Source of the DNA: a virus | Lineage: Duplodnaviria; Heunggongvirae; Uroviricota; Caudoviricetes | Strand: one strand, 5' to 3' | Virus record (IMG/VR): IMGVR_UViG_2563366937_000007 | DNA length: 52,243 nucleotides | In this document: positions 10,290 through 46,188 of the stretch, piece by piece | How the letters are laid out: every line of letters starts with the position of its first letter | Numbering within the stretch: the first letter of the stretch is position 1 | Made by a program: the position numbers and the translations under genes | Notes under the pieces: generated by a model | Databases searched by the model: none | What the model was told of the DNA's origin: nothing | Seen by the model: the letters and a program-made list of their open reading frames with translations, nothing else

Positions 10290-13200
10290 TCAACGGATAC
10301 TGATACCGGAAGCAGCTTTTTTGGTCACAATCACCGTACAGTCTGTGATGTTACCTGCGCCCTGATTGCCTTTCTGGAAAATCTTAAACTCCAGAGTGAC
10401 GCTACCACCACCACTCGGCATATCAATAACCGCACTGTAACTACCGGGAATGGCCCCTTTAGTTTCTCTGGATGCGATTAATACGCCGTTTTTGCGAACT
10501 TCAAAACCATAACCCGTGTATCGCGTACCTCCCGGGTTATTACCGCTCCCCGGATCGTCATACGCCATACCGTTAAAAATAATGGGCGGAATAATGATTT
10601 GGCGGTCAAAGTTATGATCATCGTAAATGGTGACTGTAACCGTCCCGCCTGGTGTTTCCGTGTTACCCCACGTACCAGCCTTTTTCGGAAATGATTTGGA
10701 TACAGTTTTAACGAAGTCACCTCTGACCTGGTTCGCCTCCAGCATGCCCTTAATCGTACAGTTTTCATTTACCGTGACGTTGTTGAGCGTCCCGGAGTTC
10801 GCATTCACGTTACCGCTGATATCGGCATTTTTCGCCGTCAACCGCCCGTCCGATGTCAGGGAAAATACCGGCGGATTGCCGCCGCTGGTAATGGTTGGCG
10901 CCGTCAGATACTTCAGGAACACTTCGTTCATGAATATCTGGTTGCCCTGCGCCACAAACATCGGCGTTTCATTCCCGTTTGCCGGGTCAATAAACGCGAT
11001 ACGGTTAGCGGCAACCAGGAACTGGCTCAGTTTGCCTTCCTCCGTATCCTCCATGCTGAGGCCAAGCCCCGCGACATAATGCCTGCCGTCTTCGGTCTGC
11101 TCAATTTTGACGCCCCACATGGCATTCCATTTATCGTTGGCGTCCTTCCACTCTTTCGAAAACTCCTCCAGTTTGCTGGCGTTATCCTCCGTCAGCTCGA
11201 CTTTTTCCAGCAGCTCCTTGCCGAGATGGGATTCGGTTATCTGGCCTTTGAAAAAATCCAGGTAACCTTCCGCATCATCGCTCGCCCGACCGACAGCCTC
11301 CACGAATGCCGATTTGCCAACAGTGTTCACACTGCGAACGTAAAAATAATAATCATGGCCCGGCTTAATATTGATACTGGCGGCTATCCAGTACAGCGCC
11401 GTGCCAAGATAGCGGGCTGTGGTTTCAACCTGCCTGATATCGGTAATCCGCTTTTCCGAGAACCAGAACTCAAACTGTACCGTCGGATCATAAACCGCAA
11501 GATGCGGCGTGGCGGTTATCTGAAAATAGCCCGGCGTCAGCTCAATCCGCGACGGTGCTGCCGGTGCGGCAATCCGGAACGATACCGACGCCGGATCGCC
11601 CTGCTGTCCCCACGCATTTACCGCCCGGACTGTCAGCCTGTAGTTCCCCAGCGCCAGTTGCGTGAAGCGGTATGTGGTTTCCGTCGTCCGGGCCGTGCTG
11701 ACCAGCCGCTCACTGCCGTCATCCGCTGCCACGGTCAGGCGAAGCATAAAGCTCACCCCCTTCACCACCTTCGGCGTGTCCCAGCGCGCCAGCACCTGGT
11801 ATTCCCCGCTGTCTGCGGTGACTTCTGCGGTCAGGTGCTGCACTGCTGGCGGCGTGACACCATTCACCGTGCCGCTCTGGTCGCCGTCAAAGTGCGCCCC
11901 GTTATCCACGATGGCTTCTTTCTCCGGTACATGCTGCACGGCAGTGATGGCATACGTACCGTCATCGTTCTCACGGATACTCACACAGCGGAACAGGCGC
12001 TGGCGCAGCGTCGGCAGCTTCAGCCCCCACACGCTGTACTCGGCAACGCCGTCAGGAACCCGGCTCACTTTCACCTTCACGCCGTCGGTGACGGACTGGA
12101 CCTCCACGCTGACCGGATTCCCCTGTCCGTCAACCAGGCTTATCAGCGTGGTGCCGGAGGATGGCAGCGTGATTTCACGGTCGAGCGTCAGTGTCCGCGT
12201 CTGGCTGTTCACCGCCAGCACGCGCCCGCCGATGCTGATCCCCGCATAGTCATCATCACAGATTTCAATGACATCACCCGGTACATGGCGAAGCCCTTCG
12301 GCACCCACGCTGAAGTCCACGGTCTGCGTTTCCAGCAGTTCCGTTTTAATCAGCCACAGCCCGGCGCGGTGTGCCTGCCCCCGGCTGGTACAGCCAAAGG
12401 CATCCATCTTCGTGACGTTACGACCGTAACGGGCAATGGCCTGCGAGTCCTCCACAAGCTCTGTCGCCGTCTCCCAGCCGTTATCCGGGTCAATCCAGTT
12501 CACCTCAACGGCATTATGGCGGTCCTTCAGGGCGCTGAAGCTGTAGCGGAACGGCGCGCCATCATCCGGCATCACCACATTACTGCGGTTATAGGTCCAC
12601 ACCTTATCCGACGGTCGGTCCTGCACGAACGTCAGCGTCTGCCCGTTCCATACCGGCATACAGCGCATCGCCGAGCAGAAATCACTGAGAACATCCCACG
12701 CCTTGCGCTGTGTGGTCAGGTAAGCGTTACAGGTGATGCGCGGCTCCGTGCCACCAAAGCCATCCGGCACTGACTGATCGCAATACTGGCCGATGACATA
12801 CAACGCCCATTTATCCACATCCGCCGCACCAAGACGTTTCCCCATGCCGTAGCGCGGGTGGGTCAGCATATCCCACAGACACCAGGCCATATTGTCGCTG
12901 TATGCTGGCTTAAACGTTCCGTCCCAGATACCGCTGTATTGCCGCGTCTGCGGGTTATAGTTCGACGGCACCTGCAGAATGCGCCCGCGAAGATGATAAT
13001 TACGGCTCACCTGCTGGCTGCCGAACTGCTCCGAATCCACCTGCACGCCGACCAGTGCCGTGTTCGGGTAGCACTGTTTCACATCGATGATTTCGGTGTA
13101 TGACGACCAGAGCGTTTTGTTCTGCAGCTGGTCTGTGGTGCTGTCCGGCGTCATCCTGCGCATCCGGATATTGAACGGGCGCGGCGGCAGGTTATCCACC

Positions 13201-36304: not shown

Positions 36305-36379
<75 letters not shown>

Positions 36380-36382
36380 ATA

Positions 36383-36458
<76 letters not shown>

Positions 36459-38706: not shown

Positions 38707-38862
38707 TTACTCCTCAGGTTCGTAAGCTGTGAAGACAGCGACCTCCGTCTGGCCGGTTCGGATTCGTACCTCACAGAGGTCTTTCCTCGTTACCAGTGCC
38801 GTCACTATGACGGTTAAACAGATGACGATCAGGGCGATTAACATCGCCTTTTGCTGCTTCAT
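38707..38862 (-). CDS. hok: Hok/Gef-family type I toxin (HokD/RelF-like)
   Basis: 51 aa MKQQKAMLIALIVICLTVIVTALVTRKDLCEVRIRTGQTEVAVFTAYEPEE; AAGGAG sits 9 nt upstream; a short upstream frame ends on the hok ATG; missed by the ORF track. Confidence 0.75.
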   Translation of the reverse strand: MKQQKAMLIALIVICLTVIVTALVTRKDLCEVRIRTGQTEVAVFTAYEPEE

Positions 38863-39384
38863 AGCCTGCTTCTCCTTGACCTTTCGGTCCGTAAGAGGCT
38901 AATCTCTATGTGTCGCATAGATATGGCCTCAGATTAATGTTAAACGTCTTGCAGGACGCGTAATGTTAACTGGGGCTTTTCTCTATCTACCTTTGGTGTT
39001 CATGCCCGAGGCAGATAGCCTCAAGCACCCACAGCAATTCTAACTATCCAATACATCACTGCCAACACTTTAAACTCTTACCCTTTAAAACAAGAACAAA
39101 ATTCAACCAATCAGCATTGGGCGTATACTCATATCCTAGAGAAAACAACTCTTTCTGTACTATTTATATCCATATGATTTATAAGCATTTGCCACTTGCC
39201 ATAGCCGCACAATGACAGTTTGCCATTTGATGTCAATAGATAAAAATGATCGTTTTCAATGAGTTACATACTTGCAAGGCGTTGCACATCAGGCCCGATT
39301 ACGTCAGTATCAAAAGATTACAGATGGTGCATTACTGCCACCTCGCCTTAATGTTCCAGAACTCTCCAACTTGAGGAATTTTCA

Positions 39385-43787: not shown

Positions 43788-44210
43788 TTAATGAACAATG
43801 ACAGAATCGTCGGAAGACCCGCCGCCGCTGAAATGTGCTTTCCGGTAAACGGCTTGGACTGCATCATCATGCGCATCAATTGCCGTACTTAACGCTTCCT
43901 GCGCCGCCAGTAATGCACGGCGTTCCAGGGTATCGAAGATGCAGAGTCGGTGACGCAGCTCGCGCGGAAGGATTGCCAGAATTGCTGGGATCAGCTTCTG
44001 AATTTTTTCTCTTTGCGTTTTCGTTTCACCTTTCAACCAACGGTGATAGATATTCTGCTGATTGTTCCAGTCCTTGCCTGGAACCAGGGGCAATTCGCCG
44101 TCCCCCTGGCGCAGATATTCTTCAGTAATTGCATTGGCTACCCATGCCTGCCCTTTTTCGGCTGCCAGGGCTAACAACACTGATTCGATGTGCTCATGCT
44201 TGATTTTCAT
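43788..44210 (-). CDS. ydaT: YdaT-like protein (CII-like position)
   Basis: 140 aa, matching the Rac YdaT length as I remember it; start overlaps the ydaS stop. Confidence 0.55.
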   Translation of the reverse strand: MKIKHEHIESVLLALAAEKGQAWVANAITEEYLRQGDGELPLVPGKDWNNQQNIYHRWLKGETKTQREKIQKLIPAILAILPRELRHRLCIFDTLERRALLAAQEALSTAIDAHDDAVQAVYRKAHFSGGGSSDDSVIVH

Positions 44211-44461
44211 GAATCAACTCCCATCAGCTTTTTCGTAGTAGTTTTATTTTTGCCAATAGTTAAAATTGCATCGGCAGAAAATAATCCGTTTGATGCATGA
44301 GCGATTTTTTCAGCGTAATTTGTTTCGCCGGTATATTCTGTGCGAGGCAGTTTTCCGTTATCCATCCATTTGTAGATTGCTCTTTGGCTGACACCACAAA
44401 CGTCGGCCACAACAGAAACGCGAACAGTTTTGATTACATCTTCAAGTGTTTTCTGGTTCAT
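44207..44461 (-). CDS. ydaS: Cro-like helix-turn-helix regulator
   Basis: HTH segment VSQRAIYKWMDNGKLP; divergent from racR; start uncertain. Confidence 0.55.
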   Translation of the reverse strand: MNQKTLEDVIKTVRVSVVADVCGVSQRAIYKWMDNGKLPRTEYTGETNYAEKIAHASNGLFSADAILTIGKNKTTTKKLMGVDS

Positions 44462-44486
44462 ATCACCCTCACAATGTGAACTTTGA

Positions 44487-44517
44487 GTACATGCTATAAC
44501 AGAACTGACAGTACATT
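44487..44517. promoter_or_regulatory. operator-like AGTACAT repeats in the racR/ydaS divergent promoter region
   Basis: GAGTACATG and CAGTACATT about 24 bp apart, between the divergent starts. Confidence 0.4.
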
Positions 44518-44540
44518 CAAGAGCGAATATCATTGAACTT

Positions 44541-44960
44541 ATGGTTCATGAAGATAAAGCGCGTAAAGAGTTCGCCAGTAGGCTTGCGCTAGCCTGTGAA
44601 AACGCTGGTTATGAACAACATGGAAGGCAGGCAGAAATTGCCCGTCGAATGAAATTAACACCAAAAGCGGTTAGCAAATGGTTTAATGGCGAAACAATTC
44701 CTCGCCGAGAGAAATTAAGGGAATTAGCAACACTCATTGGAACAACACCAACCTATCTTTTGGGAGAGGATACAGAAGAAAGTGGACAGGTACGTTTCTA
44801 TCAGGAGTTAAATCCAAGACAAAAAATCATCATTGACCTTCTGGACGAGCTCCCTGACAGTGAGACAGATGAACTTTTAAAAACTCTTGAGGAGAAAAAA
44901 CAGAAGTACAATGCAATTTACGAAGAGTTAGCACGAAAGAAAAAACAAAAAGCCTCTTAA
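44541..44960 (+). CDS. racR: CI-like prophage repressor (HTH_XRE)
   Basis: 139 aa; HTH segment RQAEIARRMKLTPKAVSKWFNGE; divergent from the cro-like gene. Confidence 0.75.
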   Translation: MVHEDKARKEFASRLALACENAGYEQHGRQAEIARRMKLTPKAVSKWFNGETIPRREKLRELATLIGTTPTYLLGEDTEESGQVRFYQELNPRQKIIIDLLDELPDSETDELLKTLEEKKQKYNAIYEELARKKKQKAS

Positions 44961-45037: not shown

Positions 45038-45076
45038 GTACTTAAAGTACTTTACAACAATGAACACAAAGTACAT
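45038..45076. promoter_or_regulatory. operator-like sites downstream of racR: palindrome GTACTT-A-AAGTAC plus AAGTACATT
   Basis: Same AGTACAT motif as in the racR/ydaS region; lies before the ydaG-kilR operon. Confidence 0.4.
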
Positions 45077-45248
45077 TATATACCTACCAACCCCCCCCCG
45101 CCCCACAGAACGCAGGGCAATACTTCGAGTTACCAGGCAGTGGTCAGGGGTTAAGTAGCCAGCCCGAGGCGTATGAACATGACGGCGGGATTCAAATTTT
45201 GCAGTGCAGCAGTTAGTTCCGCCACCCGGCGTTAAGGGGAGAGATAAG

Positions 45249-45393: not shown

Positions 45394-45546
45394 ATGCAAA
45401 AAATCGACCTCGGCAATAACGAATCCCTGGTGTGCGGCGTGTTCCTCAACCAGGATGGAACGTTCACCGCCATGACTTATACCAAAAGCAAAACATTTAA
45501 AACAGAAACAGGCGCACGTCGCTGGCTTGCCAGAAATACTTGCTAA
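45394..45546 (+). CDS. ydaF: small protein, 50 aa
   Basis: GAGGTG before the ATG; MQKIDLGNNESLVCGVF...; size and position match Rac ydaF from memory. Confidence 0.4.
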   Translation: MQKIDLGNNESLVCGVFLNQDGTFTAMTYTKSKTFKTETGARRWLARNTC

Positions 45547-45727
45547 TCCATTATTTGGATTAATTCAATATTCTCGCTGTAGGGGTATAGCAGAAACCAC
45601 CAAAGCCCGGAGGTGGTGAAATAAAACCGGGCACAACACGAAGGCGCATTTCCGATATCCATAAAGAGTCGGTCTTGTCTGTTAAATTTAAATGGTGGGA
45701 GTGCGCCTCCGGTTGTGAATAACAACA

Positions 45728-45792
45728 CTGCTGTGTGTAGTCTTGGCGGCATCAGTTTTTTCTTGAAGTTCGACTGATGTCCGCCCTTTTTA
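45728..45792 (+). ncRNA. DicF-like small RNA candidate
   Basis: GGCGGCATCAG...CTGATGTCCGCC hairpin followed by CTTTTT; shares the GGCGG(U/C)AUCAGUUUU and CCGCCCUUUUU blocks I remember from DicF. Confidence 0.4.
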
Positions 45793-45966
45793 AAGTGAAT
45801 TTTGTGATGCGGTGAATGCGGCTAAGCGCACGCGGCACAGTTAAAAGTCATGTTAGTCCTTATTGGTTTGGGTGGGAAAACCGACTGTAATTGTTAACTG
45901 GTTGCAGTCACCTGGAGGCACCAGGCACCGCATCAACAAAGTTCATTTGTAAAAATGGAGATAATT

Positions 45967-46188
45967 ATGATTGCACATCACTTCGGAACTGATGAAATAC
46001 CACGTCAGTGTGTGACTCCTGGTGATTATGTTCTTCATGAAGGCCGGACATATATCGCCTCGGCAAACAATATTAAAAAGCGAAAACTTTATATTCGTAA
46101 CCTGACTACAAAAACATGCATTTCTGACTGCATGATTAAAGTCTTCCTCGGTCGTGATGGTTTACCTGTAAAGGCGGAGTCATGGTGA
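45967..46188 (+). CDS. kilR: cell-division inhibitor KilR
   Basis: 73 aa from [14 protein letters not shown]...; matches Rac KilR size and order from memory. Confidence 0.65.

Follow-up and report, generated by a model that had tools for sequence, protein, structure and literature searches.

The hairpin element between ydaF and kilR is, as judged from sequence comparison, almost certainly the small RNA KilS of Rac-type prophages, which is already annotated in E. coli K-12. In the window, i.e., the whole stretch of 52,243 nucleotides of Caudoviricetes DNA that was analysed (IMG/VR record IMGVR_UViG_2563366937_000007), we find an ortholog of KilS whose hairpin, U-tract and downstream leader are homologous to those of DicF, and whose single-stranded part carries the 3' seed of RprA and not the seeds of DicF. 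The explanation that we regard as probable is that KilS is a trans-acting sRNA with an RprA-type seed, that its hairpin acts in cis as a premature terminator, and that ftsZ is not blocked. The features on which the argument is built are as follows.

45394-45546, + strand: ydaF (DUF1391), upstream gene of the same leftward early operon (tblastn against K-12 YdaF, 91.8% identity; annotation of related genomes)
45680-45688, + strand: putative extended -10 promoter element TGtTAAATT of KilS, read from the sequence
45695-45791, + strand: full-length KilS ortholog, 97 nt (alignment with K-12 kilS, b4833)
45695-45725, + strand: 5' domain of KilS including GTGCGCCTCCGGTTGTGAA (sequence comparison; matched in Qin by a block that precedes dicF by about 130 nt)
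45726, + strand: position homologous to the K-12 RNase E site 1418471 (KilS nt 32), transferred by alignment
45729-45744, + strand: seed TGCTGTGTGTAGTCTT, identical to RprA nt 62-77 (Rfam RprA alignment)
45745-45785, + strand: DicF-type terminator hairpin GGCGGCAUCAGU / ACUGAUGuCCGCC with a 16-nt loop (homology to the DicF stem, fold)
45787-45791, + strand: U-tract forming the KilS 3' end, likely the Hfq-binding tail (K-12 KilS 3' end annotated at the homologous T5)
45788-45974, + strand: structured kilR leader, divergent STnc100-like (RF02076, 37.8 bits, E 9e-7; alignment with the Qin dicF-dicB spacer)
45967-46188, + strand: kilR, encoding the FtsZ-targeting killing protein (tblastn against K-12 KilR, 95.9% identity over 73 aa)

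Window positions 45695 to 45791 align end to end with the K-12 ncRNA gene kilS (b4833, 1418405-1418502; 97 versus 98 nt), with five substitutions and a 1-nt indel in the loop, and the identity with K-12 continues on both sides, across the promoter region and as far as kilR. After ydaF, about 25 to 45 bases are unrelated; homology to K-12 resumes near 45572, and 45572-45720 is almost identical. Both marks of KilS are present, full-length orthology to K-12 kilS and a location downstream of ydaF, within the kilR 5' leader of a prophage of the Rac type. The promoter-proximal sequence, the seed region and the hairpin are also alike in the two copies; they differ in that the window reads CACUG...GUCUU and K-12 CAUUG...GUCCU, two substitutions that flank the seed. 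The putative element TGtTAAATT precedes by 7 nt the position that corresponds to the K-12 transcription start site (TSS) 1418502, and cleavage at 45726 would, by homology, give a DicF-like short form of 66 to 67 nt (45726-45791). In the predicted fold of the full-length RNA, the 5' domain (45695-45725) partly sequesters the seed. In K-12, KilS was predicted from Hfq RIL-seq and verified by northern blotting (Bar et al. 2021; PMC8175672); it derives from the kilR 5' UTR, its TSS being mapped to 1418502 and a cut by RNase E to 1418471 (PMC8175672, supplementary file 6). Its support in K-12 is thin, the counts being three for interactions and 235 for chimeric fragments and the sRNA score modest, with yncL as the sole reproducible partner reported (PMC8175672). 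A stable, Hfq-associated transcript of about 100 nt is documented for the K-12 RNA only (PMC8175672). The first-pass annotation had proposed a small RNA gene and had asked for a stable transcript; the northern-validated K-12 ortholog agrees with the former and provides the latter. At least 80% of the surrounding 1 kb is present in 1,432 of 5,426 complete E. coli genomes, in which ydaF, a hypothetical protein, kilR and ydaE are annotated and, in most cases, no ncRNA by PGAP.

On the + strand, the hairpin (45745-45785) consists of GGCGGCATCAGT, a loop of 16 nt and ACTGATGtCCGCC, followed by a C and by TTTTT (45787-45791). An 81-nt stretch folds with -23.9 kcal/mol (z -2.9 versus 200 shuffles), the hairpin by itself with -19.5 kcal/mol. 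The hairpin is missing from a consensus terminator scan, because its 16-nt loop exceeds the 8-nt limit of that scan. The element lies in a gap of about 420 nt between ydaF and kilR, which contains mechanical open reading frames only, the longest of 69 aa on the - strand. We rejected protein coding in the gap, as this frame has no Pfam match and its best PHROG match has an E value of 0.14. Hence, the hairpin with U-tract that had been suggested at 45728-45792 stands by sequence (45745-45791, +) and by fold, the description of an ORF-free gap of about 400 bp holds, and the location just upstream of kilR agrees with the tblastn placement of that gene.

The likeness to DicF is, as the alignments indicate, one of homology rather than chance. 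The Rfam model of DicF (RF00039) matches 45732-45786 (+) over its full length; when 501 nt were searched, this match scored 42.8 bits with an E value of 4e-8. As 48 bits are needed to reach the gathering score, DicF is absent from the whole-window scan at gathering threshold; the Rfam scan that had been named as a check went against the proposal in this respect. Alignment with K-12 Qin revealed that the basal stem (GGCGG.AUCAG / CCGCC), the U-tract and the whole spacer of about 170 nt up to the start codon are common to dicF-dicB and KilS-kilR, with conserved blocks including AAAGTGAATTTTGTGATG, GGTGAATGCGGCT.AGCGCACGCGG and CACCTGGAGGCACCAGGCAC. KilS thus has a Rho-independent terminator hairpin with U-tract homologous to that of DicF, and the leader that contains it belongs to a prophage gene for a division inhibitor and has the conserved spacer. 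Like DicF, it precedes a small division-inhibitor gene, consists of a short single strand, a hairpin and a U-tail, and has an RNase E-defined 5' end. In contrast to DicF, the gene that follows is kilR instead of dicB, Bar et al. assign KilS a TSS of its own, and the DicF 5' seed UUUCUGGUGACGUUU, the ftsZ-pairing loop and the 3' stem are all replaced. KilS departs from DicF in three defining features, the Rfam gathering score, the ftsZ-complementary 3' segment and the 5' seed. KilS nt 7-25 (GTGCGCCTCCGGTTGTGAA, window 45701-45719) has a near-identical counterpart, GTGCGCTTCCGGTTGTGGC, in Qin (L001, ~1742-1762), about 130 nt upstream of dicF. This placement means that Qin, relative to Rac, has about 110 extra nucleotides between the GTGCGCTTCCGGTTGTGGC block and the hairpin, and it is the location of this insert that the RprA-like segment of KilS occupies.

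This segment was revealed by a weak match to the Rfam RprA model (RF00034; 25.4 bits and E 1.1 at a gathering score of 70), in which the three-hairpin architecture of RprA was not found. KilS and RprA are identical in 16 of 16 nt, and in both RNAs the identical stretch lies directly 5' of the terminator hairpin; the conserved RprA 3' seed UUGCUGUGUGUAGUCUU adjoining the terminator is present in KilS. The 16-mer is unique in the window, and none of 100 shuffles matches it at two or fewer mismatches. Local alignments of RprA and KilS span 26 to 33 nt (RprA nt 47-80) with z scores of 10.6 (window) and 11.2 (K-12), and a prophage variant (L085) reaches 11.8 with 20 nt exact; the Qin DicF region aligned to RprA gives a z score of -0.7. 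Due to the two seed-flanking substitutions, the window and K-12 copies each keep a different 16-nt register of RprA identity, that of K-12 KilS being AUUGCUGUGUGUAGUC. It is rather likely that the RprA-type seed is the functional seed of KilS. A study by Papenfort from 2015 is said to concern the RprA 3' seed and ricI.

KilS is not a member of the RprA family, because it lacks the 5' hairpins and the rpoS-activating stretch of RprA and pairs weakly with rpoS. Interaction energies given here come from our own windowed, accessibility-corrected duplex scan with unpairing costs, which is not a benchmarked predictor; plain duplex predictions on long sequences gave unrealistically long hybrids and were dropped in its favour. 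The segment that pairs with the rpoS leader (RprA nt 33-52) is absent from KilS; consequently, pairing of KilS with the rpoS leader is weak (net -1.2 to -2.3 versus -10.5 kcal/mol for RprA), and most RprA targets cannot be assumed to be common to both. A role of KilS as an RprA-like activator of rpoS is therefore unlikely, with only a minor second pairing stretch in common (net about -2 kcal/mol). In sum, KilS resembles the core-genome sRNA RprA in a seed that has the same register and directly adjoins the terminator on its 5' side, and differs from it in the missing 5' stem-loops, the terminator, the prophage locus and the promoter. A target of the seed within the prophage was considered as well and rejected, since no complementary site occurs elsewhere in the window.

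The two RNAs also have the same predicted site in the 3' UTR of yncL. The best predicted duplex of KilS and yncL joins the seed GCUGUGUGUAG(U) to UUGCACGCAGCA, with a hybrid energy of -16 to -18 kcal/mol. For processed KilS, the net energy is -8.7 kcal/mol in the window (reached by two of 40 seed shuffles) and -10.9 kcal/mol in K-12 (by none of 40), and RprA at the same site has -10.3 kcal/mol (0/40). In full-length KilS, the seed is partly paired and opening it costs 7 to 8 kcal/mol; activity may thus depend on processing, which is transferred here by homology. The K-12 RNase E site (nt 32) lies immediately 5' of the seed. Independently, a TRIC-seq preprint names yncL as one of the RprA targets that TRIC-seq and RIL-seq both detect, and ftsA is listed among the RprA partners, to which ariR, ymgA/C and osmB also belong. 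Taken together with the RIL-seq partner of KilS, two RNAs with the same seed therefore have the same experimental partner. The site UUGCACGCAGCA is directly followed by a strong terminator hairpin, GUACUGUCAGAG...CUCUGACAGUAC (K-12 locus L213, ~12040-12100, - strand), a layout typical of 3'-UTR sRNAs and sponges, and so the yncL 3' end might be a sponge for RprA and KilS. Northern probe 2 for KilS (AGGACTACACACAGCAATGTCGTTATTTAC; PMC8175672, supplementary file 3) covers the stretch in common with RprA and could cross-hybridise with RprA or processed RprA; probe 1 is hairpin-specific. As 16 to 26 nt are common to KilS and RprA, some RIL-seq chimeras or the signal of probe 2 could in principle be cross-assigned.

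To survey the family, we used the leader block as query against viral contigs and the block after the terminator as query against one genome per species; the block CACCTGGAGGCACCAGGCAC is common to many prophage contigs. The genome scan with TTTTAAAGNGAATTTTGTG gave mostly chance AT-rich matches outside the Enterobacteriaceae, and the Escherichia and Shigella loci alone were used. We obtained 27 distinct true variants (28 were recovered, of which L136 is a chance match), in practice confined to prophages of Escherichia and Shigella. They combine 5' ends and hairpins as follows.

Classical DicF: DicF-type 5' end and ftsZ-pairing loop
KilS class: RprA-type seed and KilS hairpin
L025, L055/L114/L134 and L085: RprA-type seed and three other hairpins
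L036 and L171 (E. albertii): DicF-type 5' end and KilS-like stem without the ftsZ loop
L068 and L127: DicF-type 5' end and a short hairpin
L019 and L076: ...GUAGUCUUU before a DicF hairpin with the ftsZ loop

All variants fold into a hairpin with a U-tract (-10 to -22 kcal/mol), and the basal stem shows a double compensatory change from GGCGG/CCGCC to GGUGG/CCACC in L019 and L076. RprA-type seeds are found upstream of kilR in all 12 loci with a callable downstream ORF, and DicF-type seeds upstream of dicB-like genes, with one exception (L197) in which a DicF RNA is combined with a KilR-like gene. Variants that keep the ftsZ loop form a separate subgroup, almost always upstream of dicB. The seed UUGCUGUGUGUAG is kept across four hairpin types while the flanking bases vary, and this conservation across unrelated hairpins argues for selection on the single strand. 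E. coli-type DicF or leader sequences were also seen in the records of a Veillonella parvula MAG (L193), of a proteobacterial MAG from soil (L197) and of Actinobacillus porcinus (L152), and Actinobacillus and Aeromonas phage records (hits H34 and H41) contain DicF or leader sequences at 79 to 84% identity; these records of odd taxa probably reflect binning or assembly contamination or recent transfer. Sequences like dicF in prophages were reportedly the subject of work by Faubladier and Bouche in 1994.

The proposal that the element resembles DicF had included a block of ftsZ translation, and the two parts have to be separated. In DicF, the 3' part pairs with ftsZ and the 5' end with xylR (Balasubramanian et al. 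2016; PMC5069750). In our scan, DicF nt 32-53 (CUCCGUGACUGCUCUGCCGCCC) pairs with ftsZ from -28 to -7 (hybrid -22.7, net -8.2 kcal/mol), a site that agrees with PMC5069750. The window has UUCUUGAAGUUCGACUGAUGUCCGCCC at the homologous positions, i.e., the ftsZ-pairing residues of DicF (loop ACUCCGUGA and 3' stem) are replaced, and CACUGCUGUGUGUAGUCUU stands in KilS in place of the DicF 5' seed UUUCUGGUGA that pairs with xylR. The best KilS-ftsZ sites have net energies of -1.9 (window) and -3.2 kcal/mol (K-12) for the full-length RNA and of -2.9 and -5.5 kcal/mol for the processed RNA, and pairing is no better than chance, being equalled or beaten by 33 of 40 shuffled seeds in the window and 23 of 40 in K-12. 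DicF-type pairing with ftsZ was therefore rejected for both forms on the basis of accessibility-corrected duplex scans with shuffle controls, and since shuffled seeds match the energies, the ftsZ mechanism is unsupported. Of the DicF-like description, hairpin, U-tract, leader and position stand as homologous, and the seed and the ftsZ-pairing segment do not; the base-pairing check gave no ftsZ-complementary seed, and the ftsZ-blocking mechanism is not borne out. One could still imagine a DicF paralog whose antisense pairing shuts down translation of ftsZ and which, jointly with KilR, blocks division. The true homology of the hairpin and its place upstream of a division inhibitor would fit this, as would ftsA among the RprA partners and a weak, interrupted match of the RprA/KilS seed to GGCGACAGGCACAA in the ftsZ leader (hybrid -10 to -15 kcal/mol). 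Nevertheless, we consider it very improbable: beyond the replaced residues and the low net energies, the KilS-ftsZ duplex consists of 3-bp helices split by mismatches, the Rfam score for DicF is below gathering, and the variants with an ftsZ loop belong to the other subgroup, almost always upstream of dicB.

In the explanation that we prefer, an sRNA with an RprA-type seed on a cis-acting terminator, KilS would have an extended -10 promoter of its own, from which transcription runs rightward in the window, starting at about 45695; it is probably also part of the ydaG-ydaF-kilR early transcript. The transcript would end at the intrinsic terminator 45745-45791. KilS may then act as an Hfq-dependent, base-pairing RNA in trans, with UGCUGUGUGUAG as the working seed, which an RNase E cut at about nt 32 would expose at the 5' end of the 66-nt DicF-like form. 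The seed would contact partners of the RprA type, the clearest being UUGCACGCAGCA in the yncL 3' UTR, and translation of ftsZ would not be blocked. In cis, the hairpin would be a premature terminator, so that read-through transcripts alone carry the structured leader and kilR, and premature termination would keep toxic KilR low. The gene kilR is toxic and kept silent in K-12, with Rho/NusG-dependent silencing and a link to OxyS; the premature-terminator role is consistent with this silence, and on balance, we favour an attenuator role of the hairpin. The cis role might even be the only one, with the leader terminator attenuating kilR, the short RNA being a by-product and the RprA-like stretch a recombination relic. 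The toxicity and silence of kilR speak for this, as do a terminator in the same place in every family member, the assignment of KilS to the kilR 5' UTR by Bar et al. and the few RIL-seq interactions. Yet the seed is kept across four unrelated hairpin versions while its flanking bases vary, Hfq-bound KilS was captured together with a partner in which the site of best complementarity is that for this very seed, and the sister RNA DicF, of the same layout, is a proven trans-regulator; we thus regard a purely cis-acting element as unlikely. It is also imaginable that KilS is mainly a competitor: by sequestering Hfq or the sites that RprA binds, or by being sequestered itself by a sponge in the yncL 3' UTR, it would modulate the output of RprA when the early operon is on. 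Seed and predicted site are the same as those of RprA, and the yncL site directly 5' of a terminator hairpin has the layout of a sponge; but such a role is a refinement of the trans-acting, RprA-seeded KilS with no distinct anatomy, and we give it hardly any weight.

A tentative reading of the whole, which we hold with somewhat less than even confidence, is that KilS is a prophage copy of the RprA 3' seed on a DicF chassis, in a family that swaps three modules, and that the prophage thereby addresses RprA targets and not ftsZ. The three modules would be the 5' seed (DicF or RprA type), the hairpin loop (with or without ftsZ pairing) and the downstream inhibitor (dicB or kilR). If this is true, a Rac-type prophage addresses part of the host Rcs/RprA targets (yncL and possibly others) when the early-left operon fires, and the KilR protein handles FtsZ while KilS addresses targets of the RprA type. 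As an object, the element is ordinary, an ortholog of a RefSeq-annotated K-12 sRNA that about one in four complete E. coli genomes contains, and the reading of KilS as chassis plus seed is a refinement and not a new kind of system. It may be new, since the paper naming KilS (PMC8175672) mentions neither DicF nor RprA and no link of KilS to either was found in the literature searched. Up to now, KilS was an orphan sRNA to which a single partner and no mechanism had been assigned. There is now a target hypothesis for it (the 3' UTR of yncL and whatever else the RprA 3' seed targets), and the family illustrates how seeds are swapped in nature on an sRNA scaffold that prophages conserve. There are two practical consequences: reads or probes of KilS and RprA can be confused, and a DicF-like hairpin beside a division inhibitor is not automatically a regulator of ftsZ.

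The structured kilR leader downstream of the hairpin matches the STnc100 model (RF02076) end to end (model positions 1-206) and has the hallmark CACCnGGAGGCACCnGGCAC hairpin of the STnc100/PasD family, but its 37.8 bits do not reach the gathering score of 47, and its first hairpin is GCGGCUAAGCGCACGCGG, not CCCCCUGUGCGGAGGGG. Moreover, it is an mRNA leader, whereas STnc100 is a free-standing sRNA gene. Bona fide STnc100 elements at other loci score 57 to 132 bits and are frequent in contigs of prophages; they are connected with PasD sRNAs in a 2026 preprint. They often lie directly behind a TTGACA...TAAATT promoter, in two to five tandem copies (four in L016, five in L104), and STnc100-like elements were noted at L007 and L011 in addition to these two loci. 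Their frequent location behind such promoters prompted the idea that the kilR leader or STnc100 might be an antiterminator of the put type known from HK022 (putL/putR); this is unsupported, as HK022 contains neither an STnc100 match nor the motif.

As to the surroundings in this Rac-type prophage, none of ydaG, ydaF, kilR, ydaE and racC is missing and their order is that of K-12; recE-like genes and a RalA antitoxin RNA lie nearby. In related genomes, kilR is annotated as such, and its 5' leader contains KilS. The first-pass annotation had put sieB at this place in K-12 Rac, and correctly so: K-12 has sieB between ydaF and kilS, upstream of the latter, whereas tblastn revealed no sieB anywhere in the window. 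The short unrelated stretch after ydaF (45547-45571) contains an inverted repeat, AATCCAttatttGGATT, and the last residues of YdaF read …ARNTC in the window versus …EKHTVS in K-12. No RacR homolog was found in the window by tblastn; in the immunity region (44207-44960), the + strand has an HTH-type ORF of 139 aa (44541-44960), and a second ORF, of 108 aa, diverges from it on the - strand (44207-44533). The window is a Rac-like prophage with an immunity type different from that of K-12 Rac. Between the repressor gene (44541-44960) and ydaG lies a homopolymeric C tract (C9 G C4, 45091-45104) near a promoter-like site (45051-45079); this tract within the early-left control region could be prone to slippage. 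Further RNA genes are the RalA antitoxin RNA at 50509-50687 (-, 220 bits), a sok-like antitoxin RNA at 38860-39030 (-, 101.5 bits) and two tRNA genes at 36308-36458 (-).
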